A DNA stretch of 64,000 nt, taken from assembly GCA_011170375.1 (NCBI GenBank), contig DUEV01000006.1, positions 89,255 through 153,254 on the forward strand, given 5' to 3'. Under the pieces are notes generated by a model. It was not told the DNA's origin, searched no databases, and was given only the letters and a program-made list of their open reading frames with translations. Shown in pieces: positions 2,814-43,319 of the stretch; positions within the stretch are counted from its first letter, which is position 1, and each line of letters opens with the position of its first letter. A program made the position numbers and the translations under genes. This DNA is from Dehalococcoidia bacterium (GTDB taxonomy: Bacteria; Chloroflexota; Dehalococcoidia; Dehalococcoidales; Fen-1064).

Positions 2814-3599
2814 ATGAATGTACCAATAAAGTTACCTCAATCATTTAGTGCCATTACGACCGGATATACCTGGAGTGAGGTGACGATTGGCAAGTCCACG
2901 GCAAAGACCTATCGTCTGCAGCATCGCCATCAGCCAACCATGTTCCTGAAGATAGACCAGAAATGGCCAAAGAGAGAACTACTAGAAGAAAAGAAGGTGC
3001 TGGAGTGGCTTTCGGGCAAATTACCTGTAGCCACCGTGTTATTTTTCGATGAGGATGACGATAATGAATATCTGCTAATATCTGGGATTCCAGGAACGGA
3101 TGCCGCGAACTTAATCGGCAGCATTAATAACACCAACCTAGTTATCCTTGTCGCAAAGGGGCTTCGGATGATTCGCGGAGTTCCTATTGCTGAATGCCCG
3201 TTTGAAAGAAGACTGGATAGAGTAATTACACTCGCTGAGTTTAACGTAAAACACAAGCTCGTCCATGAATGGGATTTTGCTGACATCAGGCACGGAAAAA
3301 CGGCCGAAGAACTGTATGAGGAACTCCTACTCCTGAGGCCAGCGGATGAGGACCTGGTTTTCACCCACGGAGACTACTGCCTTCCGAATATCATGATTCA
3401 CCAAAAAGAGATTGCAGGGTTTATCGATTTGCATAGAGCGGGCATCGCAGACCGGTATCAGGATATTGCTCTGGCAATAAGGAGCATAAGGTATAACATA
3501 GGCCCCGGTTACGAACAGGTTTTCCTCCAAGAATATGGAATTACCGAACCTGACGTCAATAAAATGGAGTACTACATGCTACTGGACGAATTCTTTTAG
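2814..3599 (+). CDS. aph(3'): Aminoglycoside 3'-phosphotransferase family kinase
   Basis: 261 aa. HGDYCLPNIM...GFIDLHRAGIADRYQDIALAIRSI and C-terminal YYMLLDEFF closely mirror APH(3')-II motifs (HGDACLPNIM, GVADRYQDIALA, YRLLDEFF). Gene looks AT-richer than its neighbours. Confidence 0.85.
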   Translation: MNVPIKLPQSFSAITTGYTWSEVTIGKSTAKTYRLQHRHQPTMFLKIDQKWPKRELLEEKKVLEWLSGKLPVATVLFFDEDDDNEYLLISGIPGTDAANLIGSINNTNLVILVAKGLRMIRGVPIAECPFERRLDRVITLAEFNVKHKLVHEWDFADIRHGKTAEELYEELLLLRPADEDLVFTHGDYCLPNIMIHQKEIAGFIDLHRAGIADRYQDIALAIRSIRYNIGPGYEQVFLQEYGITEPDVNKMEYYMLLDEFF

Positions 3600-7980: not shown

Positions 7981-8856
7981 CTACTGCCCGGCACCAGCAG
8001 CAGAGGCCTTCCTAGCCTGATACCTTACCTCGCCCTCACTGAAGAGCCTTTCCTCCTCCTCGGTGGCGATTATCAGCGGGGGTACCTCGGTCGGCCTGCC
8101 CTCGACATCGAGGGCTACCATAACAACATAGGCAGTCAACGCCTCGACCCTTTGTCCAGCAAGGAGGTCTTCCATCTCAATCCGGACCTGCACCTCCATT
8201 GAGGAACGACTGGTGAAGGTGAGCCGCCCGCGGACAATTACCAGGCTGCCGACCCGGACCGGGGTGCGGAAGATAATGTCGTCCACTCGGCCGGTGACGA
8301 TATTGGTACGGCAGTGCCGGGCTGCCACGACACCAGCGGCATTGTCCATCAGCTTCATTAGCTCGCCGCCGTGGACAAAACCGGCCGGATTCGCCTGATT
8401 GGGCAACATCACCTGTGCCATCTCGACCGCCGAATGGCTCACCGTCCTGCCCTCGAACTCCCCGCCCTTCTCAAACCCCTCGCGTAGCTTTTGATAGTTC
8501 GCCTCATGTCTCGCCTCGACCTTGCTCATCCGGCGGAAGAAATCGGCAATCTCGGTAAAGCCCTCCGCCTCAGCGGTCTCGGCCGCCTCGGGGTAGAAAC
8601 GGGTTGCCTCGAGATGCTCACCTCCGATTGCCCGCTCAAGGTTCTCCGCAACGTCACCGGCACCACCGAGAAACTCGAACTCGTGCCGGGCATGTTCCGC
8701 CTCATTCATCGCTGTGGCAGCAAACAGGTCGGCAATCTGCTCCAGACCGGCCTGCCTGGCAGCATCGGCAAAATAGCGGTAGCGGGCACTGACGCCCACC
8801 TCCGCCGAAAAGGCTTTCAACAGTACTTCCTCAGTTTTGCTTCCCTTCAGTTCCAT
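7981..8856 (-). CDS. Fusion protein: rubrerythrin/ferritin-like diiron domain plus hotdog acyl-CoA thioesterase domain
   Basis: The N-terminal half has two ExxH diiron motifs (NEAEHARHE, KVEARHEAN). The C-terminal half (MLPNQANPAGFVHGGELMKLMDNAAG) is typical of YciA/BFIT thioesterases. I prefer the ATG at 8856 (MELKGSK), preceded by GGAGGGGG, over the ORF-track start at 8928. Confidence 0.75.
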   Translation of the reverse strand: MELKGSKTEEVLLKAFSAEVGVSARYRYFADAARQAGLEQIADLFAATAMNEAEHARHEFEFLGGAGDVAENLERAIGGEHLEATRFYPEAAETAEAEGFTEIADFFRRMSKVEARHEANYQKLREGFEKGGEFEGRTVSHSAVEMAQVMLPNQANPAGFVHGGELMKLMDNAAGVVAARHCRTNIVTGRVDDIIFRTPVRVGSLVIVRGRLTFTSRSSMEVQVRIEMEDLLAGQRVEALTAYVVMVALDVEGRPTEVPPLIIATEEEERLFSEGEVRYQARKASAAGAGQ

Positions 8857-8869
8857 GATAATCCCCCTC

Positions 8870-9703
8870 CTAGAGTACGTACCTCTCAACGGCAGTCGCC
8901 ACACCACTGTGCTCAACATCAGGAACAATATGGTCGGCTACGGCTTTCAACTCATCAGGAGCATTAGCAACGGCAATCCCCAGCCCGGCCGCTGTCAACA
9001 ACGAGATGTCATTGGTACCATCGCCGATAGCCACGACCTGAGACAGCGGTATCCCCAGAAACGCCGCCAGCTCCTCCAAGGCCTTTCCCTTGGATACCTT
9101 CAGGCTGATAATATTCACCAGGTCTACATCGGGATAGACCGGTGTCTTTGTCCACGTGAAGTTGAGGCGGCCCTCGAAGTGACGGCAGAAAAGACGGGCC
9201 TGCGCCTTCTCTTCCGCCGAGCGCATCACCAGTGTCCCCTTGATAATACGCTCCTGCAGCCACACCTGGCTTAAGTCCGTGACGGTCGGCTCAAGCCCGA
9301 AGAACTTGCGGCGTATCTCAGTCCCCCAGTCCTCCTGCTTGACGTACAAATGGGTAGAGGAAAAGAGTTCAATCCTCATTTCCTGCTGATAAGCGAACTC
9401 GCCCATTTCCTTCACCAGTTCCGGTAATACCGGCTCCACGTAGACCTCTATATCACCGTGAACGTCAGCCACCAGGGCACCGTCAAAGAAGACATGATAT
9501 CCATCGAGCGAAAGTAACTCAAGAGTCTTCTGACAGGCCTGGGTCACCCGGCCGGTTGACAGGGCAACATGGACGCCTGCCTGTCTGGCACTGGCCAGTG
9601 CCTGCCTGTCCGTATCAGAAATGACACCAGCCTGGTTTATCAGCGTGCCGTCGATATCCACCACCAGGAGACGGGGGCGCTTTGTCAAGCCTTTTTCCTC
9701 CAT
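8870..9703 (-). CDS. Cof-type HAD-IIB phosphatase
   Basis: 277 aa. LLVVDIDGTL motif I, STGR motif II, GDGTNDISLL motif IV. Confidence 0.85.
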   Translation of the reverse strand: MEEKGLTKRPRLLVVDIDGTLINQAGVISDTDRQALASARQAGVHVALSTGRVTQACQKTLELLSLDGYHVFFDGALVADVHGDIEVYVEPVLPELVKEMGEFAYQQEMRIELFSSTHLYVKQEDWGTEIRRKFFGLEPTVTDLSQVWLQERIIKGTLVMRSAEEKAQARLFCRHFEGRLNFTWTKTPVYPDVDLVNIISLKVSKGKALEELAAFLGIPLSQVVAIGDGTNDISLLTAAGLGIAVANAPDELKAVADHIVPDVEHSGVATAVERYVL

Positions 9704-9784: not shown

Positions 9785-9857
<73 letters not shown>

Positions 9858-9884
9858 GCTTTTGTTTCCTGATGTTCCCGCCTG

Positions 9885-9893
9885 ATTATAGCA
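9885..9893 (-). promoter_or_regulatory. Minus-strand extended -10 box (TGCTATAAT) in the conserved tail downstream of the tRNA
   Basis: Plus strand ATTATAGCA reads TGCTATAAT on the minus strand. The same box sits in front of nrpR and the crotonase gene. Confidence 0.4.
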
Positions 9894-10611
9894 TATCGCT
9901 GGCTGGTTGAACGAGAAGCGAACACAACGGAAGTGATAACCAGGTATCTGTATGTTCAAGATTTTACAGGCTTCTACCGATAACTTGCATCATCGACAGT
10001 CACCCGGAAAAATTCACCGTCTGACTATTTAAATCATTGTCTCTGAGAATAGATGTTTACTTTATACACGGTAAACTCATAAATAATATCATGCAGTAAT
10101 GTTAGAAAAATCGTTTTTCTACTTCGGTGTGATAGCAAGTCGCATAGACCAATAACTTGTTGAGTTGAAGTTTACGTACTACTCATGCTAGACCACGCTC
10201 GGATTCTTGGTAGAATACTTACGGTATGCCGCATAGATCTATTTATCCTTAATCTCTAGTCCTTTCACCTTTCCCTAACAATTAGTCATAATGTGAAATT
10301 TCAAGAAATAGCTAAGTTATCAATCCCTGTCAGGCAGTTAGACTCAAGACTTTTTCGTTTGATTTCAGCATAGGACAATAATCGCTAGCGTTATATTTGA
10401 AATCCTAGCTAGATTATCTCCTCTTTCCAGAATTGGAGACCGTAATCAGTTTTTAAGGCTGCCTTACATCTTTACACCCACCATTTTAAAATGAGGTTTT
10501 GTATTTTAGGGAATTAATTACATCCCTTTTCTCTCGACAGGTAGCGCATTTCTCAGGCCGCCTAAAAGTGCGTTAAAGGCACCAAGATATATTCCGGACT
10601 CTAACGAATGC

Positions 10612-10640
10612 TTGAATATCATTAGGTAGAAGCGTAATAT
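10612..10640 (+). promoter_or_regulatory. Candidate promoter for the AOR gene
   Basis: TTGAAT (10612-10617), 17-nt spacer, TAATAT (10635-10640). The predicted leader contains stem GTCAGTAA (10657-10664) / TTACTGAC (10698-10705) with inner ATTAG/CTAAT. Confidence 0.45.
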
Positions 10641-10728
10641 TACCGTTACAGCTTGTGTCAGTAATTATTAGCTGATTGAGGCAACCCTAATTTACGGTTA
10701 CTGACAAGCAAGACAAGGAGGGTGAATT

Positions 10729-12585
10729 ATGGCAAGAGGCTATATGGGAAAGATGCTGATGGTGGATCTTTCCAAAAATGAGCTAAGAGATGAGCCACTC
10801 GATGACAAGTTTTGTCGCCAATTCATTGGAGGTTATGGCATTGGCGTTAGGATACTCTTCAGCCGACAAAAGGCTGGTGTCGATCCGCTAGGCCCAGATA
10901 ATACCTTCGGCATTCTTACTGGTCCATTTACTGGTACTGCAGCACTCTCAGGTACGAGACACACGGTGGTGGGAAAATCACCTCTGACGGGAGGTTGGGG
11001 TGATGCCAATTCAGGTGGTTATTTCGGTTCTGGTATGAAGTTCGCTGGCTATGACGCGGTGTTCTTTGCTGGCACATCTGAAAAGCCGGTATATCTCTTT
11101 ATTAATAATGGCAAGGCTGAGCTGAAAGACGCTACTCGCCTGTGGGGGAAGGATACTTACCAAACCCAAGACATACTTAAATCTGAATTGGGCAAGAATA
11201 TAGAAGTAGCCTGTATTGGCCAATCAGGAGAGAACCTCTCTCTAATCTCCGCAGTTGTGAGCAGGAGTAGAACCGCCGCTCGTTCGGGATTGGGCGCCGT
11301 GATGGGTTCAAAGAGGCTTAAAGCAGTAGTGGTGAAGGGCAACATGAAAGTCCCTGTTGCCGATGAAGAAAGGACAAGGAAGCTGAGAAGAAAATACCTC
11401 GGTCAACTGGGAGGGCATATTGTCTGGTTAAAGCCAATAGGCACGCCGTTCCTCACCGTCCCAGGCGTTCAGGATGGTGATTCACCAGTTAAGAACTGGG
11501 GGGGGGTGGGGGTTATTGACTTTCCTAACTCTGAACCTATTGGAGCCGACGCTGTGATTGAGCGCAGGTCAAAGAGGTTTGCCTGTTACCTGTGCCCCAT
11601 TGGATGTGGAGGGTACATGAAGGCAGGAACCGGAGAGTACAAATATAAGGCGGGCGCTCGTAGACCTGAGTATGAGACAATTGCTATGTTTGGCACCAAT
11701 TGCCTTAATAACAACCTTGAATCGATAATTAAAGCAAACGATATTTGCGACCGCCATGGACTCGACACCATTTCTACTGGAGCTACTATTGCCTTCGCTA
11801 TTGAATGCTTTGAGAACGGGCTTATTTCCAAGACAGACACTGACGGTATTGAGATGACGTGGGGCAATCATAGAGCTATCGTGGCTATGACGGAAAAGCT
11901 AGCTACGAGAGAGGGTTTCGGTGCTGTGTTAGCCGATGGAGTGAAGGTGGCGGCAGAGAAAATCGGTAAGGGCGCCGACAAATACGCCATGCATATTCAA
12001 GGGCAGGAGCTACCGGCACATGACCCGAAGGGAGCGTTTTTCTACGCAACTGGCTACAGACTGGACCCTACTCCGGGTCGTCACTTTGTAGGCTCAGAAT
12101 TGTCAATGGGACCAGAACATCCCAAAGGACTACTACCCCGATTCGACCATGGATCGTTTGCCGGAAGAGGAGAAGCACGCAAGATAGGTGGCAACTTCCA
12201 CCATGCCCTAGTTTGTGCCGGTATGTGCCTTTTCGTGTACTGGGCTTATCCTAATGTTGAGCCCATAGCCGAGTTCATGAGGGCGGTTACTGGTTGGGAC
12301 ATAACTAATGACGAGCTGCTCAGAACCGGTGAGAGAATTTCTAATATCCGTCAGGCTTTCAATATCCGCGAAGGGTTGAACCCGATGGAGTTCAAAGTCC
12401 CCGACAGGGTGCTTGGCCAACCGCCGCATACAGAGGGCCCTCTCGCCGGGGTAACCATTGATGAAAAGACACTGGATAAAGAGTATCTGGCCGCAATGGA
12501 CTGGGACCTGAAGACAGCAAAACCGAGTAAAAAGAAACTTCTCGAACTAGACCTAGCAGATGTGGCCCAGGAACTCTGGCCTTAG
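10729..12585 (+). CDS. Tungsten-type aldehyde:ferredoxin oxidoreductase (AOR family)
   Basis: 618 aa. N-terminal MGKMLMVDLS..GGYGIG, the CYLCPIGCG cluster region and overall length match the AOR family. GGAGGG RBS. Confidence 0.9.
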   Translation: MARGYMGKMLMVDLSKNELRDEPLDDKFCRQFIGGYGIGVRILFSRQKAGVDPLGPDNTFGILTGPFTGTAALSGTRHTVVGKSPLTGGWGDANSGGYFGSGMKFAGYDAVFFAGTSEKPVYLFINNGKAELKDATRLWGKDTYQTQDILKSELGKNIEVACIGQSGENLSLISAVVSRSRTAARSGLGAVMGSKRLKAVVVKGNMKVPVADEERTRKLRRKYLGQLGGHIVWLKPIGTPFLTVPGVQDGDSPVKNWGGVGVIDFPNSEPIGADAVIERRSKRFACYLCPIGCGGYMKAGTGEYKYKAGARRPEYETIAMFGTNCLNNNLESIIKANDICDRHGLDTISTGATIAFAIECFENGLISKTDTDGIEMTWGNHRAIVAMTEKLATREGFGAVLADGVKVAAEKIGKGADKYAMHIQGQELPAHDPKGAFFYATGYRLDPTPGRHFVGSELSMGPEHPKGLLPRFDHGSFAGRGEARKIGGNFHHALVCAGMCLFVYWAYPNVEPIAEFMRAVTGWDITNDELLRTGERISNIRQAFNIREGLNPMEFKVPDRVLGQPPHTEGPLAGVTIDEKTLDKEYLAAMDWDLKTAKPSKKKLLELDLADVAQELWP

Positions 12586-12686
12586 AATAAGACAATTTAG
12601 GCAGGTGCCAGTGAGACAGCATCATATAATCACGGCCTTACTAGCCCCTTTGATTGTTCGCCCGGGTGAAAAAATTAGTGCAACAT

Positions 12687-13454
12687 CTATAACATAAGGT
12701 GCCCGCCATTTATGAAGATGAGCTGACCCGTGATGAAATCAGACTCTTGTGAGGCCAAAAATACCGCGGTTCCAACGATGTCTGCTGGCTCTTCACGCCG
12801 TCTTATATATTGTGCTGCGATAACACTCTCAAATAATTGCTCACTCCCACTCTGGCTTAAACTAGCTTCCGTCGCTGTATACCCGGGAGCAATAGCATTT
12901 ACATTAATGCCTGATGGTCCCAGAGCTGCGGCCAAAGAATGAGTCATCGTATAAACCGCCACTTTACTTAAGGCATAAGCTAAAAAGTATTGGGAATCTG
13001 GCGATCTAATAATATCAGAAGTGATGTTGATAATCTTGCCACTAGACCGCTTTGTCATTAGTGGTGCTACTGCCTTACAACACAACCAAGTTCCGCGCAC
13101 ATTGACTGCAAATATCCGGTCCCATTCTTCCACTGTCCAAGTATCCCACGGTTTGGCTTCTATTCCATAGTAAATAGCAGCATTATTAAGGAGAATATCT
13201 ACCTTGCCATAGTGCTGCACAACCTCTTCCGCCATCTTTGTGGTAGCGTTTTCATCTGAGATGTCAGTCTCTACAGCCACGGCTTCTCCACCCTTAGCCC
13301 TTATCTCATCAGCCACACCTTCAGCCCTTTGCAGACTGATATCAGGTAAAAATAACCTGGCACCTTCATCGGCATACCTTAAAGCGAACGCCCGACCAAG
13401 ACCACGGCCAGCTCCAGTTATGATAGCCACTTTGTCCTTTAATAATGGTGACAT
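12687..13454 (-). CDS. Short-chain dehydrogenase/reductase
   Basis: 255 aa. TGAGRGLGRA cofactor motif, NNAA, YALSK catalytic YxxxK. Confidence 0.85.
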   Translation of the reverse strand: MSPLLKDKVAIITGAGRGLGRAFALRYADEGARLFLPDISLQRAEGVADEIRAKGGEAVAVETDISDENATTKMAEEVVQHYGKVDILLNNAAIYYGIEAKPWDTWTVEEWDRIFAVNVRGTWLCCKAVAPLMTKRSSGKIINITSDIIRSPDSQYFLAYALSKVAVYTMTHSLAAALGPSGINVNAIAPGYTATEASLSQSGSEQLFESVIAAQYIRRREEPADIVGTAVFLASQESDFITGQLIFINGGHLML

Positions 13455-13487
13455 ATCTCCCCCCTTTCAATATCTGCTTGCCATATC

Positions 13488-14036
13488 CTATACCGGTAAG
13501 TTAAGATTTCCTTTTTCAAACTCATCTAATATAATCTCAGTAGACCACCTAGCAGTTTGCATGATCGTGCACCCTTCGGTTATTCCTAGAAACTCCTGAC
13601 TCATATCATCACGTGTCAGATCCCAGGCTCTTCCAAAGAATTTTCTCTGCACGTCCTTACAAAGTATAGATGAATATTCCTTGTAATATTTATCCAGAAT
13701 AGTGTTCCTAATGGTGACACAGCCATCACGCATGACGCGATCGTCCTGGGATTCCCGCGAAATCCCCAACGCCAGACCAATTGCGAGGACAGCGCTGTTT
13801 ACAGCACCACAGGTGCCCTCTCCAGTCATGGCAACACCGGCGGTCATAACACATATCCCAGAAAATAGTCTATCTTCCATATCCTCTGGGATGAGTTCCA
13901 AGCCCCCCCATCTCAGAGCATCGATTATAGCCAGAAACGTACACTGACCGCAGCCCTTATATTTAGCCTCGTATTCCACTCCCAGTTCCTCTGCTTTATT
14001 TATTATTTCCTCTTTTGTCCTCTTGATTTCAACCAT
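13488..14036 (-). CDS. C_GCAxxG_C_C-family putative redox-active protein
   Basis: 182 aa. GCGQC...GTCGAVNSAVLAIG...C spacing as I remember it for this family. Confidence 0.55.
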   Translation of the reverse strand: MVEIKRTKEEIINKAEELGVEYEAKYKGCGQCTFLAIIDALRWGGLELIPEDMEDRLFSGICVMTAGVAMTGEGTCGAVNSAVLAIGLALGISRESQDDRVMRDGCVTIRNTILDKYYKEYSSILCKDVQRKFFGRAWDLTRDDMSQEFLGITEGCTIMQTARWSTEIILDEFEKGNLNLPV

Positions 14037-14072
14037 AATTAGCCCCCTTGTTTTCTGCCCTGCGCTCCAGCG

Positions 14073-14078
14073 ATTATA
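14073..14078 (-). promoter_or_regulatory. Candidate -10 box (TATAAT on minus strand) for the C_GCAxxG_C_C/SDR operon
   Basis: Plus strand ATTATA, about 37 nt upstream of the minus-strand start at 14036. Confidence 0.35.
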
Positions 14079-14343
14079 CTACATTAATATATCAAATACA
14101 TTATAGAATTGGTTAAACAATCTCAAAACTACACATTGCAATTCTATACATGTCGTGATAGAGTTATGAAGCTTATAAAAGAGGGTGTTTAAATACCAAT
14201 TCTCAATCAGATCTAGTTTCGCTGACTCGTTCTTACTATAGTTGTTTGAAGGCTAGAATCAGAAGATTTATTAGTAACAAGAAGGAGGTGAGAAACAAGA
14301 TAAGAGACCTTGGTTAAGCACTCTGTTTAAAAGGAGGCTACCA

Positions 14344-15606
14344 GTGAGAAGGAAATTATTAATTCTCATGGTTAGTTGCACGATGGTCCTGGCGTTGGCA
14401 GCACCGCTTTTTGCCGCAGGCTGTGACGAAGCAGAACCGGAGAAAGAAGTAATCGTTTTCGGAGCGGCCAGACCTCTCACAGGCCCATTCGCTGTCTATG
14501 AAGAAATGGCATTCGGGCCGATCTACAAGATGTGGGTTGATGAGGTTAATGCCAGAGGCGGGCTATATATCGAAGAGTACGGCAAGAGATTGCCGATAGA
14601 GCTCAAGATATATGACGACGGCAGCGATATGGGCACAATGACATCGATGTTGGAGAGACTAATCCTAGAGGATGAGGTTGACTTTATCTTACCTCCTGCC
14701 AGTACCGCCTTCCTCTTTGCCGCTGCCCCAATAGCCAATAAGCACGGCTATATATTAATGGGAGCTGAAGGTGGCGGGACCACCCTCACGCCACTACTGC
14801 CCAGTTTACCCTACTACTTCGGTGTCCTGAATTACTCCGACCACTACCAGATGCCGGTCCTGGCCGATATTCTTTCCGACGCTGGTATAGAGACAGCGGC
14901 GATAATGTACCTTGAAGACCTCCACGGTGTGGAATATAGCGGTGTAGCTGGTATTGAGTTAACCAATGCTGGTATCGATATCGTCATGACCAAGAGCGTG
15001 CCGCTGGGGGTTATGGATGTATCTTCGATAATTAATCAAGCCAAGACGCTTGGTGCCGAAGCCTTCCTCTCTTTCTGCTACCCCGACGAGAACTTCCTGG
15101 CTATTGGTACGGCAATTGCCCTTGATTACAACCCGGACGTCTTCCTGACCGGTCCTGGAGCCAATTTTGCCTTCTTCGCGGGTGTATTCGGTCCTGCGGC
15201 AGAGGGAATAATGGGTTACGGCGCCTGGAACACGAAGAGTTCGGCGGCGTCTGAGGACTTCTACGAAAAATTCATTGCCCTCTATGACCCGGGCTTACTC
15301 GATTGGTGGGGACACAACCTTTACTACGCCGGACTGCAGTTCTTTGAACAGGCTATCGAGGAAGCCGGGACCCTTGACCAGGCAGTAATCAGGGAAGTTA
15401 TGGCAACATCGACATTCGATACAATACTGGGACCTACCTGGTTTGACATGACAGCTGATGGTGAGGGTGGCGGACTTCTGGCTGAAGAGTGCTACACCGG
15501 GCAGGTCGGCCAATGGCAAAACGGCGTATTTGAGGTCGTTGACCCCGGTGCGAATCGCACCGCACCACCTGTTATCCCCAAGCCGGCATGGCCAGCAGAA
15601 GAATAG
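14344..15606 (+). CDS. ABC transporter substrate-binding lipoprotein, Leu/Ile/Val-binding (LivK-like) family
   Basis: 420 aa. Lipobox LFAAGC. Family-typical GAARPLTGPFA and size. AGGAGG RBS, GTG start. Confidence 0.8.
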   Translation: MRRKLLILMVSCTMVLALAAPLFAAGCDEAEPEKEVIVFGAARPLTGPFAVYEEMAFGPIYKMWVDEVNARGGLYIEEYGKRLPIELKIYDDGSDMGTMTSMLERLILEDEVDFILPPASTAFLFAAAPIANKHGYILMGAEGGGTTLTPLLPSLPYYFGVLNYSDHYQMPVLADILSDAGIETAAIMYLEDLHGVEYSGVAGIELTNAGIDIVMTKSVPLGVMDVSSIINQAKTLGAEAFLSFCYPDENFLAIGTAIALDYNPDVFLTGPGANFAFFAGVFGPAAEGIMGYGAWNTKSSAASEDFYEKFIALYDPGLLDWWGHNLYYAGLQFFEQAIEEAGTLDQAVIREVMATSTFDTILGPTWFDMTADGEGGGLLAEECYTGQVGQWQNGVFEVVDPGANRTAPPVIPKPAWPAEE

Positions 15607-15771
15607 ATATAAGAATATAGCAGCATTATCATCATAAATAGTGGGCAGGCTGTCTAAATGGTGCAGATAGCAACCAAAAAAGGTGGCTATTTTCACCAGA
15701 AGGTCTGCAGTGCCTCTTTCAGGCAGCCTGCCACATCTTGATTGCCGGAACCCGAAAGCTGTTTTATATTT

Positions 15772-16638
15772 ATGGTCGAGTTCTTAAATATATTCATTGG
15801 TGGGTTGATACTGGGTGGCATCTATGCCCTGATTGCTGTGGGGCTCAGCCTGCAGTATGGCGTTGCCCGGGTGCTGAACATATCTCACGGCGAGTTTATC
15901 ATGGTCGGGGCTTTTCTCACCTGGGCAATGTATACTTTCTGGGGACTCAATCCGCTGGCCTCTCTGGCTATTGTCGGCCCCGCTATATTTGTAGTAGGTT
16001 TTGTTCTGCACCGGACATTATTCACTCGTCTAAGGACTTCATCCGCATCGCCGGCTGCCTATGAGGGTGGTTCGCTTATAGCCACTTTCGGGCTGATGTT
16101 CATCATTCAGAATTTGGCCATTATCACCTGGGGCACTGATATAGAAGCGTACTCATTTCTAAATACCGGTGTGTCTATCTTTGGGGCCAGATTTGCTGCC
16201 AACCGCTTGACAATGCTCTTGTTTGCTGCCGGAATATGCGTGGTCTTCTATCTGTTTCTGGCCCGTACTCGCCTAGGTAAAGCGATTAGGGCGGCTGCAC
16301 AGGACCCCGAGACCGCCGGAATGATGGGGGTGAACATCAAACGGGTGCTGGCTCTATGCTTTGGCCTTGGTGCCTTGATGGCCGGTCTGGCTGGCTCATT
16401 ACTGAGTATGTGTTATCCTATTCGAACCACGATGGGTCTGGAATATACCATAATCGCCATCATAGTGGTCGTCCTCGGCGGAATGGGCAGTATTGTCGGT
16501 AGTTTTATCGGTGGTCTCATACTGGGCATGGTCGGCAGCATAGTGCTCTATATCGACCCGAGCCTGTCACTAGTTGCCTATTATTTCATCTTCATACTCC
16601 TGCTGCTAGTAAGACCAACTGGTATTTTGGGTAAGTAG
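15772..16638 (+). CDS. livH: Branched-chain-type ABC permease (LivH-like)
   Basis: MVEFLNIFIGGLILGGIYALIAVG matches the LivH N-terminus. I prefer the ATG at 15772 to the TTG at 15742. Confidence 0.85.
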   Translation: MVEFLNIFIGGLILGGIYALIAVGLSLQYGVARVLNISHGEFIMVGAFLTWAMYTFWGLNPLASLAIVGPAIFVVGFVLHRTLFTRLRTSSASPAAYEGGSLIATFGLMFIIQNLAIITWGTDIEAYSFLNTGVSIFGARFAANRLTMLLFAAGICVVFYLFLARTRLGKAIRAAAQDPETAGMMGVNIKRVLALCFGLGALMAGLAGSLLSMCYPIRTTMGLEYTIIAIIVVVLGGMGSIVGSFIGGLILGMVGSIVLYIDPSLSLVAYYFIFILLLLVRPTGILGK

Positions 16639-16642
16639 AGAA

Positions 16643-17596
16643 ATGAATAGTGTTGCCAGTATTGTGTTAAACAGGTCCTTTCAACTGGGATTACTGGCTG
16701 TAATCCTTATCGCACTGGCTACTCTGCCCTTACACTACCAGGGCTATAACATCGTACGGCTGCTCAATATCTTTATGTTTGTCGTCCTGACGGTAAGTTG
16801 GGTGATTTTTTCTGGCTCTACCGGCTATATGTCACTGGCATCGGCAGCCTTCTTCGGGGTTGGCATTTACACCTCGGCCTTACTCGGTGATAAATTGCCG
16901 ATAGCGGTTGTTGTCGGCATCGGCGCCCTGGTCAGTTCTTGTGTCGCCTTTCTGGTAGGTGCCCTCACACTCAGACTTAGAGGCATATACTTTGCTATCT
17001 TCACCTTCGGCCTTGTTGAGCTCATCAAGCACCTTACCCTCTGGTGGGAGATCAATATGGAGGACAGGCGGGGAAGGCTCGTTGTCTATGTAGAAAACGA
17101 CATTATCTTCTGGGTTATGCTCTCCATTCTTGTGGCAACACTGCTAACTGCCTACTTTATCCGACGCTCCAAGTGGGGATTGGCTTTACAAAGCATTGGT
17201 GAGAATGAAGAAGCTGCCGCCCACATGGGTATAAATGTGACCCTGGTGAAGGTCATCACCTTCGCTGTCAGCGCCCTATTCGTAGGGGCATCCGGGGCAA
17301 TAATAGCGACGAGGTGGACATATATTGACCCCGGCATCGCCTTTAATCCGCTCTATTCGTTTATGCCAGTCCTGATGGCCATCTTCGGCGGTATGGGGCG
17401 GCTCTTAGGCCCGGTGATAGGCGCAATCGCCTTTACTTACCTTAAGGAGGAGTTAGGAACCGAATTTCCCGAGTTGTACATGCTTATTTTCGGTATAATA
17501 CTTATTGTGGCTATATTGTATATGCCCAACGGGCTGGTGGGGTTGATACAAAGGTTGTGGATAAGGGGTTTCAGGAGGCAGGATGCGGATACTTGA
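16643..17596 (+). CDS. livM: Branched-chain-type ABC permease (LivM-like)
   Basis: 317 aa polytopic membrane protein following livH and overlapping livG by 14 nt. Confidence 0.85.
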   Translation: MNSVASIVLNRSFQLGLLAVILIALATLPLHYQGYNIVRLLNIFMFVVLTVSWVIFSGSTGYMSLASAAFFGVGIYTSALLGDKLPIAVVVGIGALVSSCVAFLVGALTLRLRGIYFAIFTFGLVELIKHLTLWWEINMEDRRGRLVVYVENDIIFWVMLSILVATLLTAYFIRRSKWGLALQSIGENEEAAAHMGINVTLVKVITFAVSALFVGASGAIIATRWTYIDPGIAFNPLYSFMPVLMAIFGGMGRLLGPVIGAIAFTYLKEELGTEFPELYMLIFGIILIVAILYMPNGLVGLIQRLWIRGFRRQDADT

Positions 17597-18302
17597 AGGT
17601 GAAGGCGTCAGTAAACATTTCGGCGGCTTGGCCGCACTATCGAATGTCGACTTTCATGTGGATGCGGGTGAAATTGTAGGTTTGATCGGTCCCAATGGTG
17701 CCGGCAAAACTACGTTGTTTAATCTGGTATCAGCAGCCCTTACCACTAAACAGGGGGTAATAAAATTCAAAGGCAGAAAGATTACCGGCCTCAAGCCCCA
17801 CCAGATATGTCGGATGGGGTTGGCCAGAACCTTTCAATCGGTTAAAATTTTCGGTAATATGCCGGCTCTTACCAACGTGTATATCGGTTCTTTATTCGGG
17901 ATTCCAGCCGGGACGCCGTCGGCATATGCTGCCAAGGGGGCTGAGGAACTACTGGAGTTTGTTGGCTTATCAGCATCTAAGGTGACTCCTGCTAAAGACC
18001 TGACACTGGTTAACCAGAAGCGTGTGGAGGTAGCCAGGGCACTGGCCACCAAGCCGGAGTTGTTGCTGCTTGATGAGCTTATGGCAGGCTTGAATCCTAC
18101 TGAAGTAGCCCAGGCTATGGAGTTGGTAACCAAGATTCGGGATAGAGGCATTACTGTCTTTGTAATTGAGCATGTAATGAAAGCAATTATGGGCGTATGT
18201 GACCGAATTATAGTACTCCACCACGGTGAGAAGATTGCCGAAGGAACACCTCAGGAGATTGCCAATAACAGAGCCGTTGTAGAGGTGTATCTGGGAGAAT
18301 AG
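17583..18302 (+). CDS. livG: ABC ATPase (LivG-like)
   Basis: Walker A GPNGAGKTT, signature region, Walker B LLLLDE. Confidence 0.9.
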   Translation: MRILEGEGVSKHFGGLAALSNVDFHVDAGEIVGLIGPNGAGKTTLFNLVSAALTTKQGVIKFKGRKITGLKPHQICRMGLARTFQSVKIFGNMPALTNVYIGSLFGIPAGTPSAYAAKGAEELLEFVGLSASKVTPAKDLTLVNQKRVEVARALATKPELLLLDELMAGLNPTEVAQAMELVTKIRDRGITVFVIEHVMKAIMGVCDRIIVLHHGEKIAEGTPQEIANNRAVVEVYLGE

Positions 18303-18306
18303 GCCA

Positions 18307-19011
18307 ATGCTGGAAGTCAATAATATCAATACCTTTTATGGCAAAGCACAGGCACTATTTGACCTATCCTTAAGAGTCGAAGAGTCAGAAATTTTTGCTC
18401 TGATCGGCTCAAACGGCGCCGGTAAAACTACATTGCTAAATACAATCTCCGGTTTAGTAACACCAGCTTCAGGTAATATAGAGTTCCTCGGTAAGAGAAT
18501 TAACGGTTTAGCACCCCACATCATTGTAGAAATGGGCATTTCTCATGTACCCGAGGGAGGCCGGATTTTCAATGAGATGACGGTGCGTGAGAACCTGGAG
18601 ATGGGTGCCTATTCTTCCCATGCCTGGAAGATCAGGTGGGGAACACTGCAGCAGGTTTACGAGATATTTCCCGTACTGAAGGAAAGGGAGAAACAGTTGG
18701 CCAGAACATTGAGTGGCGGTGAACACCAGATGCTGGCTATGGGGAGGGGTCTGATGTCAAGACCGAAACTGTGTATCCTCGATGAGCCGTCATATGGCCT
18801 GGCACCGAAATATGTCGAGGAGGTCTTCCGTATTATAAATTCGCTGCGTGAGCAGGGAATTACGATTTTACTGATTGAGCAGAATGTCAGGCATACCCTA
18901 GAAACGGCTGACCGGGCCTGTGTGCTTGAAAATGGCCATATTGTTCTGGATGATATCTGTGATAACCTCCTTCAGAGTGACCACGTAAGGAAAGCCTATT
19001 TAGGACTTTAA
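18307..19011 (+). CDS. livF: ABC ATPase (LivF-like)
   Basis: Walker A GSNGAGKTT, LSGGEHQML signature, Walker B ILDEPS. Confidence 0.9.
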   Translation: MLEVNNINTFYGKAQALFDLSLRVEESEIFALIGSNGAGKTTLLNTISGLVTPASGNIEFLGKRINGLAPHIIVEMGISHVPEGGRIFNEMTVRENLEMGAYSSHAWKIRWGTLQQVYEIFPVLKEREKQLARTLSGGEHQMLAMGRGLMSRPKLCILDEPSYGLAPKYVEEVFRIINSLREQGITILLIEQNVRHTLETADRACVLENGHIVLDDICDNLLQSDHVRKAYLGL

Positions 19012-19142
19012 TTTAGTGATATAATATGTGTCTTAAGTCGAGAGAATTAGTGGGCACCGAATAGGAATTATGACGCATAAAGTTGAAACGCTAATACTAA
19101 CTGATTGAAAAGACCAATACATAGGTTAGGAGGTAAAAGAAA

Positions 19143-19775
19143 ATGGCTGAAGACCTAATTGGGACATTAGCTGACTTAGAAGAAAAAGAGGCTCTAGAAA
19201 TTGTAAATAGAAGGTTAAGTGCTGGTGAAGCCCCTCTCGGTATTCTGGACGATGGCAGGCGTGCCATGGAGATCGTGGGCAAACGTTTTGCAGATGGAGA
19301 GTATTTCATCCCGGATTTGATATACTCGGGTGAAATACTGAAGAGCATTAACGAAATAGTTAAGCCGAAGCTGGCTGAGGCTGGAGAGGTTAAGCACTTA
19401 GGTAAGGTCGTCATAGGCACGGTTGCCGGAGACATTCATGACATTGGCAAAGACATTGTCGTCTTTATGCTTGATGTTAGCGGTTTCGAGGTTTACGACC
19501 TTGGTGTGGATGTCCCGGCACAGAAGTTTATCGACACAATTAAAGAGAGTGGTGCCCCTATAGTTGGCTTAAGCGGTTTTCTGACACTGGCTTATGATTC
19601 GATGAAACAGACCATACAGGCCATGAAGGACGCCAACCTTAGAGACAAAGTCAGGGTAATGATTGGCGGCGGTCAGATTACAAAGGAGATAATGAAATAT
19701 ACCGGTGCTGATGCTTATGGTAGAGATGCCATGGCTGGAGTATCCCTTGCTAAGAAATGGACTGGTACCGAGTAA
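19143..19775 (+). CDS. Cobalamin-binding corrinoid protein (MtmC/MtbC/MtaC-like)
   Basis: 210 aa. N-terminal helical cap plus B12-binding DxHxxG motif (GDIHDIGKDIV) and SGFLT. Confidence 0.8.
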   Translation: MAEDLIGTLADLEEKEALEIVNRRLSAGEAPLGILDDGRRAMEIVGKRFADGEYFIPDLIYSGEILKSINEIVKPKLAEAGEVKHLGKVVIGTVAGDIHDIGKDIVVFMLDVSGFEVYDLGVDVPAQKFIDTIKESGAPIVGLSGFLTLAYDSMKQTIQAMKDANLRDKVRVMIGGGQITKEIMKYTGADAYGRDAMAGVSLAKKWTGTE

Positions 19776-19810
19776 GAATCCTCAGCAGATAATGTGCAGG
19801 AGGTAATAAT

Positions 19811-21148
19811 ATGGAAAAGCAATGGGAAGAGATGTCATCAGATGAAAAACAGGAGGCACGGTTTGCAAAGTGGCTTTCGCCGGAGGGAGTGGAATTTGTC
19901 AGCCCCGAAGCCGAGAAGTTATACAAAGAAAGGGCAACCAGGATAAAAGATGCAATCCAACTAAAGAAGTTACCGGACAGGGTGCCGGTCATGCTGATTC
20001 CCAGCTTCTTCCCCGCTTTTTACTCCGGACTAACTCCCCTTGACGTCATGTATGACTACGAAAAAGCCAACAATGCCTGGAAGAAATTCTACGTAGATTT
20101 TCAACCAGACGCACACTTTGGTTGTGTGGCTCCCGGCCCCGGAAGGTTCTTTGATATTCTTGACTACAAGTTATACAAGTATCCCGGTCATGGAGTAGCG
20201 CCGGAATCCACCTACCAGTGTATCGAGGGCGAATACATGATGGCGGATGAATATGATGCCTTTTTACAGGACCCATCGCATTTCTTCACCACCACTGTTC
20301 TACCGCGTATATTTGGCGCTCTGGAGCCCTTCAAGCAGCTCCCTAACCTCACCACAATAAATGAAATGTACGGGTCTGGTATTACCTTTTTCCAATACGG
20401 TCTTCCCGATGTACAGGCCGCTTTTAAGGCTCTTCTGGATGCCGGGAGTGAAGCCCTGAAATGGATGGGGTATTTTGGTGCCTTCATGAAAGAGTTACCA
20501 GAATTAGGATTCCCCGCAGGTCAGGGCGGCTATACAAAAGCACCTTATGACATTCTCGGCGATACCCTCAGAGGCACGAGAGGGATAATGACGGATATAT
20601 ACCGGCAGCCTGAGAAGCTCATTGAAGCCATGGATAAAATGACGCCATTCTGGATTCAGAAAGGGGTAATCGAGGCAAACATGAACGCAAATCCCTTAAT
20701 ATTCTTACCCCTACATAAAGGTGCTGATGGTTTCCTCTCCGATGAGCAGTACAAGAAGTTCTACTGGCCGTATCTTAGAAAGATTCTCCTAGGCCTGATT
20801 GATGAGGGAGTCGTACCATTCATGTGGGCTGAGGGAGGATCCAACTCGCGGCTGGAGGTTATCTGCGATTTGCCTAAAGGTAAGACAGCCTGGTTGTTTG
20901 ACGACGTTGACATGATTAGAGCTAAGGAGATACTGGGTGACGTTGCCTGCGTAGCCGGCAACATGCCTATGGACCTGTTGACTGTAGGTACACCAGAGCA
21001 GGTAAAAGAATACGCAAAGAAACTGATTGATAATTGCGGTAAGGGTGGTGGTTATATCATGGCTAACTGTGCGTTCTTTGATAATGTCAAGCCGGAAAAT
21101 GTCAGGGCCATGGTTGACTTTACTAAGGAGTACGGCATATATAAATAG
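19811..21148 (+). CDS. Uroporphyrinogen-decarboxylase (URO-D)-fold protein, probable corrinoid methyltransferase
   Basis: 445 aa, immediately downstream of the corrinoid protein. Assigned from general resemblance to URO-D-family methyltransferases, not from a strict motif. Confidence 0.55.
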   Translation: MEKQWEEMSSDEKQEARFAKWLSPEGVEFVSPEAEKLYKERATRIKDAIQLKKLPDRVPVMLIPSFFPAFYSGLTPLDVMYDYEKANNAWKKFYVDFQPDAHFGCVAPGPGRFFDILDYKLYKYPGHGVAPESTYQCIEGEYMMADEYDAFLQDPSHFFTTTVLPRIFGALEPFKQLPNLTTINEMYGSGITFFQYGLPDVQAAFKALLDAGSEALKWMGYFGAFMKELPELGFPAGQGGYTKAPYDILGDTLRGTRGIMTDIYRQPEKLIEAMDKMTPFWIQKGVIEANMNANPLIFLPLHKGADGFLSDEQYKKFYWPYLRKILLGLIDEGVVPFMWAEGGSNSRLEVICDLPKGKTAWLFDDVDMIRAKEILGDVACVAGNMPMDLLTVGTPEQVKEYAKKLIDNCGKGGGYIMANCAFFDNVKPENVRAMVDFTKEYGIYK

Positions 21149-21157
21149 ATATTCAAC

Positions 21158-21609
21158 ATGAGTGAATCTGCCGAGAACAAATAATTATAAGCAATTACCG
21201 TGGTTGCCATGGTGGTTGTGGTGTCCTGGTCCATGTCAGAGACGGGACAATTGTCAAGATTGAAGGCGACCCTGATTTCCCCACCAACCACGGCAGCATG
21301 TGTAGTAAGGGTCTAGCCTTTCACCAGCTGGTGTACCATCCGGACCGGGTTAAGTACCCTCTCAAGCGGGCCGGCAAAAAGGGTGAGGGCAAGTGACAGA
21401 GAATCTCCTGGGATGAGGCCCTTGATACTATTGTCAGTAAACTTAAGCAGGTAATAAAAGACTATGGCCCTGAGTGTATTACCCTAGGACAGAGCACCTC
21501 CAGAGAAGGTGAGTCCTTTTTCGCCAGATTTGGCAACCCGCTGGGCACGCCTAATATCTTTACTGCCGGACACTTCTGCTATTTGTCCCTCGGCTTCAGA
21601 CTTATGTAG
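21158..21609 (+). pseudogene. Remnant of a molybdopterin (MopB-family) oxidoreductase: frameshifted, internal TGA, 3'-truncated
   Basis: ATG 21158 (MSESAENK) hits a stop. The +2 frame from 21181 reads IISNYRGCHGGCGVLVHVRDGTIVKIEGDPDFPTNHGSMCSKG (N-terminal 4Fe-4S motif of MopB enzymes), then GEGK-TGA(21394-21396)-QRISWDEALD, and ends at TAG 21607-21609 after about 140 codons of an expected 700 or more. Confidence 0.75.
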
Positions 21610-21758: not shown

Positions 21759-21789
21759 TGGTAGGCCGTGCAGGCCTCGAACCTGCCGC
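21759..21789 (-). other. Orphan tRNA 3' fragment (T-arm, acceptor 3' strand, encoded CCA)
   Basis: Minus strand reads GCGGCAGGTTCGAGGCCTGCACGGCCTACCA. No matching 5' acceptor, D arm or anticodon arm upstream. Lies between the purF stop and the MopB remnant. Confidence 0.6.
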
Positions 21790-21831
21790 ACTCTCAGTGT
21801 CAACCGGGGTTGTCACCTACGTAGCAATTCT

Positions 21832-42410: not shown

Positions 42411-43319
42411 ATGAGTAGAATTACTTTTGCAACCATGGCAACTCGGAATAACCTCACACGGGCCATCATGCTGTTTGATAGCCTACGAACGTTCGGTGGC
42501 GAACTCGGTGATTCTCTCTGTATCATACTTGTCCCTGAAAAGGGAGAGCCTTTACCCGATAAAGCAAGAGAACAGCTTAGCTTACTGGATGTACGCCTAT
42601 TACCTTTTGATATGGACGAGGGAGCCGTACGGTTCCCGCTCGCTTCAGTAGTTTATGCAGCAGCCAGAGCAGAGCAGCAGGTACACGATGAAACTGAAAT
42701 ATTGGTCTGGACGAATGAGGACACGCTGATAGTCAGCCCACCATCGGACTTTCTACTCGAAGAAGGTATTAATTTTGCCTACAGACCGGTACATCATACC
42801 AAGATTAGCTCAGTCTATGGCAAACCTCCGGATGATTTCTGGTCACTGATATATCAGTACTGCGGCATTGAGGAAGGCAAGGCGTTTCCTATGGAGACCT
42901 GTACCAGGGACAACACAATAAGGGCGCACTTTAATGCCGGACTGCTTGTGGTAAGACCAGAGCAACTTTTACTGGAGAAATGGCTTGACCATTTCAGGGA
43001 GCTATATCAACATCCTGATTTTCGGCCGTTCTTCAAGGAGGACGTTCTTTATATGGTATTCATGCATCAGACGGTGCTATCAGGCGTTGTTCTAAGTATG
43101 TTTAAGAGACGGGAATTACTGGAACTCCCGGAGACCGTTAACTATCCACTCCATCTGCACCAAGAATATCCTATCGAATACCAGCCTCAGGCATTAAATA
43201 ATCTAATAACCTGCCGCTACGAGGGTATCGAAGATTTGCGGAATTCCTTGAAAACAATTCCGGTAGAAGAGCCTTTAAAAGGTTGGTTGAATGAAAGACT
43301 GGGGCCAATGGAGGTTTGA
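42411..43319 (+). CDS. Hypothetical protein (302 aa)
   Basis: Long ORF with AT-rich upstream region. No motif I can name. Confidence 0.45.
   Translation: MSRITFATMATRNNLTRAIMLFDSLRTFGGELGDSLCIILVPEKGEPLPDKAREQLSLLDVRLLPFDMDEGAVRFPLASVVYAAARAEQQVHDETEILVWTNEDTLIVSPPSDFLLEEGINFAYRPVHHTKISSVYGKPPDDFWSLIYQYCGIEEGKAFPMETCTRDNTIRAHFNAGLLVVRPEQLLLEKWLDHFRELYQHPDFRPFFKEDVLYMVFMHQTVLSGVVLSMFKRRELLELPETVNYPLHLHQEYPIEYQPQALNNLITCRYEGIEDLRNSLKTIPVEEPLKGWLNERLGPMEV

Follow-up and report, generated by a model that had tools for sequence, protein, structure and literature searches.

An apparently reduced gene cluster around an MtvB-like corrinoid methyltransferase in a Dehalococcoidia bacterium

The closest described relatives of the system reported here are MtvABC, MtoABCD, and CdmBCA, the methyltransferases I (MTIs) of which share an extended uroporphyrinogen decarboxylase (URO-D) fold. 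MtoABCD is a methoxydotrophy system of four components, namely an MTI, a corrinoid protein, a methyltransferase II (MTII), and an activase (PMC10989822; PMC13222342); CdmB was described by its authors as a hydrophobic scaffold, without catalytic residues or an active part in catalysis (PMC13222342). Corrinoid-dependent demethylation is one of the few anaerobic routes to carbon and energy from methoxy groups, which abound in the organic matter buried in sediments, whether derived from lignin or not, and Dehalococcoidia are among the most abundant sediment bacteria, with largely unknown substrates. Here, we analyzed a 64-kb stretch of a Dehalococcoidia bacterium (contig DUEV01000006.1; hereafter, the window), which carries a module of ten genes for an importer, redox enzymes, a corrinoid protein, and an MTI of 445 amino acids (aa). 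We consider it fairly probable that the module is a catabolic cluster of an uncultured Dehalococcoidales-type bacterium, by which a methylated organic acid is imported and demethylated via an MtvB-like MTI, and that the copy in the window lacks the downstream half.

Gene identities were derived from a listing of open reading frames (ORFs) combined with Pfam and NCBIfam profile searches. All ten genes that an earlier note on this DNA had named were recovered, as follows (coordinates within the window, strand in parentheses).

10729-12585 (+), aldehyde:ferredoxin oxidoreductase of the tungstopterin AOR family (AOR), 618 aa; AFOR_N 243.6 bits, AFOR_C 343 bits
12687-13454 (-), classical short-chain dehydrogenase/reductase (SDR), 255 aa; adh_short_C2 196.9 bits
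13488-14036 (-), C_GCAxxG_C_C putative redox protein (GCAxxG protein), 182 aa; PF09719 39.3 bits, cut-off 27
14344-15606 (+), LIV-family (Peripla_BP_6) substrate-binding protein, 420 aa; PF13458 145.9 bits
15742-16638 (+), LivH-type permease; BPD_transp_2; start placed by gene callers at 15772 (288 aa), as in the same-strain locus L001
16643-17596 (+), LivM-type permease, 317 aa; BPD_transp_2
17583-18302 (+), LivG-type ABC ATPase, 239 aa; ABC_tran and BCA_ABC_TP_C, NF008449 206 bits
18307-19011 (+), LivF-type ABC ATPase, 234 aa; ABC_tran, NF008626 252 bits
19143-19775 (+), corrinoid protein, 210 aa; PF02310 and PF02607 (B12-binding Rossmann domain and B12-binding_2 cap)
19811-21148 (+), MtvB-like long UroD-fold MTI, 445 aa; PF01208 73.4 bits

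The gene order, including the downstream purF, is repeated on contigs of five independent metagenome assemblies. Thus, the arrangement is no assembly artifact. As the earlier note had stated, no regulator was found in the module, and neither a pterin-binding MTII nor the activase RACo was found among the approximately 50 long ORFs of the window (Pfam).

The methyltransferase and its gene cluster

The PF01208 match of the MTI covers only its C-terminal 200 residues. Among solved structures, the MTI is most similar to CdmB (9rui, E 8e-40, with CdmB residues 14-427 aligned), as compared to E values of 1e-5 or worse for UROD structures. The MTI was compared by BLASTP to a reference set taken from Supplementary Data 3 of the CdmB paper (PMC13222342). 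The highest score was obtained with MtvB of Moorella (34.5% identity over 415 aa, 216 bits, E 3e-69), followed by four MtoB sequences (27-31% identity, 149-179 bits) and CdmB (25% identity, 147 bits). Marginal scores were found for UroD (37 bits), MecE (45 bits), OdmB and VdmB (~20 bits), and CmuA (<50 bits). In a neighbor-joining tree (389 columns, 100 bootstraps), the family of the window MTI was monophyletic (100%), sister to MtvB (70%), and grouped with MtoB and CdmB (87%). The MTI thus has the traits of the MtvB/MtoB/CdmB group, namely the extended URO-D fold, the phylogenetic placement, and an adjoining corrinoid protein.

The alignment further revealed that D251, H302, and E341 are common to the window family, MtvB, and MtoB, and correspond to S, W, and Q in CdmB. 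In an AlphaFold2 (AF2) model of the MTI, which shows the URO-D fold with a pLDDT of 75.6, H302 and E341 lie directly after barrel strands, and the ends of barrel strands are the usual location of the active site. The three positions are therefore put forward as candidate specificity residues, which may separate ether-cleaving enzymes from the haloalkane enzyme CdmB. Foldseek searches of the model against the PDB returned UROD and MtaA-type structures only; CdmB 9rui was absent from the matches (PDB library to 8 April 2026), and the result bears out the fold but allows no finer placement. Taken together, the phylogeny and the three residues would support O-demethylase-like chemistry, and the MTI is predicted to transfer a methyl group from its substrate to Co(I).

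Two other assignments of the protein were rejected. In agreement with the earlier note, it is no true HemE: It reached 29.8 bits with TIGR01464 against a cut-off of 303 bits, groups with MtvB and MtoB, and shares only 24% identity over 219 residues with Bacillus subtilis UroD (E 9e-6). An MTII of the MtaA/CmuA/MtbA type was likewise discarded, with 45.8 bits for TIGR01463 and 44.9 bits for NF004889 against cut-offs of 235 and 244.

The corrinoid protein, the gene of which ends 35 bases 5' of the MTI gene, carries the sequence DIHDIG at residue 99, i.e., the DxHxxG base-off/His-on motif. With 159.1 bits against a TIGR02370 cut-off of 215.3, it is a domain-level member that falls in no curated subfamily; it also scored 120 bits with the metH model. 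In 52 of 74 testable related loci, a corrinoid protein lies directly upstream of the MTI. The domains and the placement of the MTI bear out the earlier view of this pair as the substrate-activating half of a corrinoid methyltransferase system.

A protein search with the MTI yielded 7489 homologues, 120 of them with at least 66% identity, and at least 529 related loci were present in GTDB species representatives. These belong mostly to Dehalococcoidales/Dehalococcoidia; the other hosts are Anaerolineae, Promethearchaeota, Bathyarchaeia, Desulfobacterota, and Spirochaetota. Because the best GTDB genome match is 88% identical, the source species itself is not represented there. The ten gene families recur in shuffled order in the related loci L006, L009, L011, L020, and L039 (MTI 66-89% identical); L017 carries the set with fragmented, lower-scoring reading frames, and L010 carries it without an AOR inside the 10-kb flank. 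In all seven of these loci, genes for a 229-aa protein (U229), RACo, and an MTII follow directly 3', and in L009, L010, L011, and L020, they are joined by a gene for a FadD-like CoA ligase (NF004837, 520 bits). L021 has U229 and the CoA ligase, and lacks RACo and MTII. The MTII of the relatives scored 298 bits with the methyl-tetrahydrofolate (THF):corrinoid methyltransferase model NF005719 (cut-off 259) and 152 bits with the metH model. U229 distantly resembles the MetH activation domain (1J6R, E 7e-7; Met_synt_B12, 23 bits).

U229 is worth describing in its own right. It is encoded at L009:11411-12100, L006:11384-12073, and in 32 other loci, is missing from the window, has no precomputed Pfam annotation, and lies directly 3' of the MTI in 31 of 81 testable loci. 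We know of no role assigned to a protein of this type in O-demethylase systems. A second protein of the downstream region, of ~716 aa, with 13 RCC1 repeats and lipocalin-like and InlB B-repeat domains, is encoded 3' of the CoA ligase in L011 (16499-18649) and four other loci.

Across 84 independent loci, the MTI is accompanied by the corrinoid protein in 76%, U229 in 40%, the SDR in 31%, the ABC importer in ~30%, the GCAxxG protein in 25%, MTII in 24%, RACo in 23%, and the AOR in 17%. The combination of AOR, SDR, GCAxxG protein, and LIV importer is concentrated in the MTI subclade of the window. The other subclades have as neighbors GlcDEF-like oxidases, zinc-dependent alcohol dehydrogenases (Zn-ADH), aldehyde dehydrogenases (ALDH), TRAP transporters, DUF169 proteins, CoA-transferases, and β-oxidation genes. 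A DUF169 protein is also encoded in the window, at 43353-44105 (-), and members of this family neighbor stand-alone MTI paralogues in eight loci of other Dehalococcoidia, together with GlcDEF-like oxidases and TRAP transporters.

Searches by tblastn with U229, RACo, MTII, and CoA ligase of the relatives gave no match in the whole window, which does not hold a complete system with MTII and activase. The earlier note had proposed that the module relies on methyl-transfer partners encoded elsewhere. The partners are indeed absent from the locus; the half system, however, is not a self-contained design, as most close relatives carry the partners directly 3'. For the same reason, the window copy looks like a version without the downstream half. 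The importer, corrinoid protein, and MTI also occur without the downstream genes in L015 (88% identity) and L024 (67%), and many metagenome-assembled genomes contain several paralogous MTIs, some of them stand-alone. The recurring half layout and the stand-alone paralogues fit shared MTII and activase genes that act in trans. Thus, the half system is real; its most plausible reading is a copy that lacks the downstream half and would have to borrow an MTII and an activase encoded elsewhere.

The importer has the LIV/HAAT-type architecture, with a single operon encoding the binding protein, a pair of BPD_transp_2 permeases, and a pair of ATPases. Its binding protein scored only 39 bits against a cut-off of 477 for the LIV binding-protein model, and its PDB relatives are distant, indicate no ligand, and include no close solved binder of aromatic acids. 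Compared to Escherichia coli LivJ, the equivalents of Thr102 and Tyr202, which we take to be carboxylate contacts, are kept. The position of LivJ Glu226, which presumably holds the α-ammonium group, is occupied by proline, with no acidic residue within four residues, in 17 of 17 binding proteins of the clusters, although in this low-identity alignment the exact register is uncertain. The replacement of Glu226 is in line with the expectation that the pocket is not a canonical Leu/Ile/Val pocket. Because the Glu226 equivalent is missing, the ligand is probably not an α-amino acid and may rather be a carboxylate without an α-amino group.

Among the redox enzymes, the AOR aligns end to end with Pyrococcus furiosus AOR (1AOR, E 1.7e-108) and keeps the CxxCxxxC...C ligands of the [4Fe-4S] cluster together with the equivalents of Glu313, His448, and Cys494. 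It is predicted to contain tungsten and to couple aldehyde oxidation to ferredoxin. The PDB matches of the SDR are generic FabG-like or alcohol dehydrogenase SDRs, which indicate no ligand. The SDR is paired with the GCAxxG protein in 21 of the 84 independent loci, which makes the latter a conserved partner of the SDR.

From these components, the following route can be proposed. The LIV-family ABC importer would take up an organic acid without an α-amino group, and the MtvB-like MTI, by homology, would move a methyl, most probably an O-methyl (methoxy) group, to the Co(I) of the adjoining corrinoid protein. The AOR and the SDR with its GCAxxG partner may interconvert the alcohol, aldehyde, and acid forms of the substrate or product, with electrons passing to ferredoxin and NAD(P). 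In complete clusters, as suggested by the genes present in the relatives, a THF-type MTII would deliver the methyl from methyl-Co(III) to tetrahydrofolate, RACo would repair Co(II), with the protein resembling the MetH activation domain as a near-constant partner, and the FadD-like ligase would convert the skeleton to its CoA thioester. The half present in the window would work only with an MTII and an activase supplied from elsewhere in the genome.

The substrate and the novelty of the system

The earlier note had suggested a methoxylated compound or, alternatively, a methylated amine as the substrate. The former is a reasonable guess, because the MTI groups with the O-demethylase MTIs MtvB and MtoB and the pocket of the binding protein is not of the canonical Leu/Ile/Val type. 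A methylated amine is unlikely; the MTIs known to act on amines and quaternary amines are, to our knowledge, members of the MttB, MtmB, and MtbB families, which do not have the UroD fold. We hold O-methyl chemistry to be rather likely. An aromatic substrate has, in our estimate, a little less than an even chance, and if a single guess is to be made, we would name a methoxylated aromatic acid or aldehyde derived from lignin. Lignin-type methoxylated aromatics would be favored by the aryl-methyl-ether activity of MtvB and MtoB and by the related locus L013, which is flanked by 4-hydroxybenzoyl-CoA-reductase-like enzymes of the xanthine dehydrogenase (XDH) family and a PaaK-like ligase.

Several points weigh against the reading of the module as an importing and demethylating cluster with an MtvB-like MTI. 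The sister relation to MtvB reaches only 70% in a simple neighbor-joining tree, and at 34% identity, specificity is not transferable from MtvB. The placing of D251, H302, and E341 in the active site follows solely from their position at strand ends, in a model that is poor at residues 107-212. The gene content for MTII and activase is known for the 64-kb window only. The corrinoid protein has 29 lineage-specific substitutions, as compared to seven in L009, which could reflect relaxed constraint or could reflect adaptation to different partners. Last, the neighbors found in the wider family (Zn-ADH, ALDH, GlcDEF-like oxidases, TRAP transporters, CoA-transferases, and β-oxidation genes) fit aliphatic methoxy-acids equally well as phenylpropanoid side chains.

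This last point bears on the alternative that survives best, a non-aromatic methylated acid; an aliphatic methoxy-acid, an acid with an S-methyl group, and a methylated sugar acid are candidates. Removal of the methyl group would here leave a free hydroxyl or thiol, and the SDR and AOR would then oxidize the alcohol to the aldehyde and the acid; the phenol released from an aryl methyl ether, by comparison, requires no alcohol or aldehyde dehydrogenase. Sister subclades lie beside GlcDEF-like 2-hydroxyacid oxidases (two FAD_binding_4 proteins and a CCG protein), as well as beside Zn-ADH, ALDH, TRAP carboxylate transporters, CoA-transferases, and β-oxidation genes. The CoA ligase is FadD-like (NF004837, 520 bits), and the binding protein appears to be of a carboxylate type and is not close to solved aromatic-acid binders. 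However, alcohol dehydrogenase, AOR, CoA ligase, and β-oxidation are also suited to side chains of the coniferyl or ferulate type, and L013 has 4-hydroxybenzoyl-CoA-reductase-like enzymes and the PaaK-like ligase at its flank. Moreover, the nearest characterized MTIs, MtvB and MtoB, act on aryl methyl ethers (PMC13222342). On this evidence, we regard a non-aromatic acid as doubtful.

Our literature searches found no description of the cluster or of the MTI clade in Dehalococcoidia, and the supplement of the CdmB paper, with its table of tree sequences, names neither Chloroflexota nor Dehalococcoidia (PMC13222342). The "MtgB" O-demethylase of Bathyarchaeia was considered as a precedent and rejected, as it represents an unrelated family of ~300 aa (PMC10989822). 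The cluster thus appears to encode a system of the corrinoid O-demethylase type that stands apart in both its MTI clade and its partner genes; cut down in the window, it is common in sediment Dehalococcoidia and apparently not yet studied. A bolder interpretation would be that the MTI family, together with the MetH-activation-like partner, AOR, SDR, GCAxxG protein, and LIV importer, marks an undescribed and ecologically major anaerobic pathway for a novel, possibly non-aromatic, imported methoxylated acid, which feeds methyl-THF to the Wood-Ljungdahl pathway and couples oxidation of the skeleton to reduction of ferredoxin; this we offer as speculation, with a rather small chance of being correct in full.

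The large and well-delimited MtvB-like clade, of which no member has been characterized, comes mostly from uncultured Dehalococcoidia. Its conserved partner set (importer, AOR, SDR, GCAxxG protein, MetH-activation-like protein, RACo, THF-type MTII, and CoA ligase) provides a concrete group of proteins for assays, and the contrast between D251/H302/E341 and the corresponding residues of CdmB is open to a mutagenesis test. The locus itself is of moderate interest, and the large enzyme family of sediment Dehalococcoidia to which it points merits further work.

Integrity of the module and its borders

We evaluated whether the window copy might be a nonfunctional remnant that has been decaying since the loss of MTII, activase, and partners. 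The absence of the four downstream genes found in most close relatives, the pseudogene with a premature stop that adjoins the MTI, and the excess of lineage-specific substitutions in the corrinoid protein (29 against seven in L009) would agree with such decay. However, all ten ORFs are intact and full length, with sizes equal to those of their orthologues, and the DxHxxG motif and the cofactor ligands of the AOR are preserved. A relative-rate test with three taxa, in which unique substitutions were counted in the window and L009 with L006 as the outgroup, showed no acceleration for the MTI (22 versus 20), AOR (41 versus 34), or SDR (23 versus 16). A window-specific excess in the ABC genes and the binding protein was rejected as a sign of decay: Between loci, the genes concerned are either mosaics or paralogues (binding-protein identity 35-57%), and the outgroup is therefore invalid for them. 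In addition, the same shortened layout is found in two other lineages (L015 and L024), and the protein sequence is identical on contigs of several metagenomes. Thus, we consider a decaying remnant quite unlikely.

The best relatives differ among the genes of the module, being L009 for the MTI (89%) and L013 for the corrinoid protein (80%) and the AOR. These differences, together with a substitution count that is raised in the corrinoid protein but balanced in the MTI, suggest that recombination has taken place inside the cluster.

The earlier note had described the module as horizontally acquired, AT-richer than both flanks, and bounded by a tRNA gene on the left and by a pseudogene and a "tRNA scar" on the right. 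The features at the two edges are the following.

9785-9857 (+), tRNA-Met (CAT); ARAGORN, Rfam tRNA model 68.5 bits; left edge of the lower-GC tract
9858-10728 (no strand), AT-rich noncoding spacer of 871 bp, 5' of the AOR gene; GC 0.385 by composition
21172-21588 (+), pseudogene of an acetylene-hydratase-like W/Mo-bis-PGD (bis-pyranopterin guanine dinucleotide) enzyme, N-terminal 20%; Molybdop_Fe4S4 and the start of the Molybdopterin domain
21762-21812 (-), possible 3' fragment of a tRNA with a long variable arm (T-arm and acceptor-like), weak; truncated Rfam match to tRNA-Sec, 10 bits, E=9.2, no ARAGORN call

The tRNA-Met was found where expected (ARAGORN, Rfam). The GC content at third codon positions (GC3) is 0.68 in the left flank (1-9.7 kb), 0.51 in the module, 0.535 at 21.8-42 kb, 0.48 at 42-50 kb, and 0.61 at 50-64 kb. 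The module and the next 29 kb do not differ (Mann-Whitney p=0.92), and each of them is distinct from the outer flanks on either side (p<0.001). The tetranucleotide profiles agree with this picture: The correlation of the module is 0.72-0.79 with 21.8-50 kb and 0.44-0.52 with the outer flanks, which correlate with each other at 0.84. Thus, the module is AT-richer than its left flank (GC3 0.51 versus 0.68) but not than its right flank, and because its composition equals that of the next 29 kb, the lower-GC tract runs from ~9.86 to 50.1 kb.

This tract of ~40 kb (9858-50100, GC3 0.48-0.54), which lies between mutually similar stretches of higher GC (GC3 0.61-0.68), includes purF, glutamate-synthase-like (gltB-like) genes, asnB, amt, glnA, nadE, carAB, and an NrpR regulator. 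Because core nitrogen-assimilation genes lie inside it, the tract is no obvious accessory island. The NrpR-type nitrogen repressor (40992-41987, +; HTH_12 and NRD1_2, 263 bits) ends the nitrogen-assimilation gene cluster and belongs to a regulator family best known from euryarchaea.

A discrete, horizontally acquired low-GC island at 10.7-21.1 kb, inserted at the tRNA-Met, could account for the sharp drop of GC3 from 0.68 to ~0.51 exactly at the tRNA and the AT-rich 871-bp spacer that follows it, as well as for the mosaic of best relatives (L009 for the MTI, L013 for the AOR and corrinoid protein), the patchy spread of the cluster across phyla, and the pseudogene at the right edge. It is contradicted by the GC3 and tetranucleotide profile shared with the next 29 kb and its core nitrogen genes (p=0.92; r 0.72-0.79). 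Moreover, no integrase or transposase was detected among the long ORFs of the window (Pfam), and a repeat search found no att-like flanking direct repeats around the module, only families of 18-20 nucleotides at chance level. Among the traits of tRNA-associated islands, the tRNA-Met 871 bp 5' of the AOR is present; an integrase and repeats of the tRNA 3' end were not found, and the shift in composition is one-sided. Searches with the 871-bp spacer and the tRNA-like fragment by blastn/tblastx against all fetched loci matched same-strain contigs only, and a purF-anchored metagenome scan for an empty site or syntenic relative recovered relatives that are at most 76% identical and share no neighbors. 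With the GC step on the left as the one observation in favor of an island bounded at 21.1 kb, that proposal was not supported; we judge it improbable. The locus is an ordinary accessory catabolic cluster and no demonstrable island.

At the right edge, the predicted pseudogene was verified: 21172-21588 corresponds, with 81% identity, to residues 6-144 of an intact orthologue, an acetylene-hydratase-like enzyme of 706 aa (L042:6841-8961) that has acetylene hydratase 2E7Z as its best PDB match (E 1e-120). Trp80 (within GEGRWERISW in L042) is replaced by an in-frame TGA at 21391-21393, and no counterpart of the last ~80% of the gene is present. The truncated pseudogene beside the MTI marks a rearrangement at the right edge of the module. 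The edge could not be shown to stem from one clean deletion between the stop codon of the MTI and the pseudogene: An intact orthologue of the latter lies 3' of the CoA ligase in L042 but 5' of the cluster in L044 and L055. The tRNA scar was not substantiated: The segment 21762-21812 (-) matched the 3' part of tRNA-Sec with 10 bits (E=9.2) when searched alone and gave no Rfam match in its context, neither of which is significant, and this removes the fragment as an argument for an island. The pseudogene, with its TGA in place of a Trp codon, lies ~170 bases from the tRNA-Sec-like fragment, which is probably a coincidence.

Four further observations concern genes outside the module. In the left flank, an APH-family phosphotransferase gene (2814-3599, +) is a single-gene outlier (GC 0.457, GC3 0.50, in surroundings with GC3 ~0.69). 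The longest frame of a rubrerythrin/4HBT-thioesterase fusion (7981-8928, -) overlaps by 59 bases the 3' end of a HAD-hydrolase gene (8870-9703, -), and the start codon of the fusion probably lies further downstream. A radical SAM/SPASM protein with a C-terminal SEC-C motif is encoded at 53224-54510 (+), between carboxylesterase and amidohydrolase genes. For two long ORFs, 42411-43319 (+; 302 aa) and 45325-46944 (+; 539 aa), Pfam gave no match at a threshold as loose as E=0.1.

Comparison with described systems

A haloalkane (chloromethane) dehalogenating methyltransferase of the CdmB type is most improbable, as beyond the best solved match (9rui, E 8e-40) and the common extended UroD architecture, the identity of 25-29% lies below the 40% or more used to define the set of conservation homologues of CdmB (PMC13222342), MtvB and MtoB score higher, S, W, and Q stand in CdmB in place of D251, H302, and E341 of the window family, MtvB, and MtoB, an adjoining MTII expected of an orthologue is missing, and the importer and the aldehyde and alcohol oxidoreductases would have no role for a gas. 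CdmBCA of Acetobacterium dehalogenans, which acts on chloromethane, is nevertheless informative, since CdmB alone has been solved among the extended UroD MTIs, and its N-terminal and inter-strand extensions align with the window protein. The gaseous substrate makes an importer unneeded, and the window shows no synteny match to cdmBCA.

For the accessory genes, the importer has the same five-component architecture and Pfam families as E. coli LivJ/K-HMGF, and differs from it in the binding protein (39 bits, cut-off 477), in which Glu226 is missing. The AOR aligns over its full length with P. furiosus AOR (1AOR), with the cluster cysteines and the equivalents of Glu313 and His448 kept; in contrast to the latter, it stands in a methyltransferase cluster and not in a context of amino-acid fermentation.

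The complete cluster of the relatives resembles a dissected MetH, as it encodes separate homologues of the cobalamin-binding (corrinoid protein), pterin-binding (MTII), and activation (U229) modules, of which the window holds the cobalamin-binding one only. Unlike in MetH, a UroD-fold MTI replaces the homocysteine-binding domain, and reactivation is assigned to the ATP-dependent RACo.

MtoABCD of Methermicoccus shengliensis and Archaeoglobus fulgidus shares with the window an extended UroD-type MTI, which falls into the 87% group and has the conserved Asp, His, and Glu in common. MtoB is, however, more distant than MtvB, the MTII of the relatives is a bacterial AcsE/MeTr-like methyl-THF:corrinoid enzyme, and the neighboring genes differ.

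The closest counterpart is MtvABC, the vanillate/aryl methyl ether O-demethylase of Moorella thermoacetica. The two MTIs agree in only one third of their residues, and the window family is a separate clade with 100% support. The loci of this family add the MetH-activation-like protein, AOR, SDR, GCAxxG protein, and LIV-type importer, and the window copy differs further in being without MTII and activase. On the other hand, MtvB is the closest characterized MTI and the sister group in the tree, and it shares with the window MTI the KAPFD.LGDTLRG, PLH+GA, and AEG motifs, including D251, H302, and E341. The two systems are also alike in their logic, which leads from the MTI to the corrinoid protein and on to a THF-dependent MTII, an enzyme found in the related loci.

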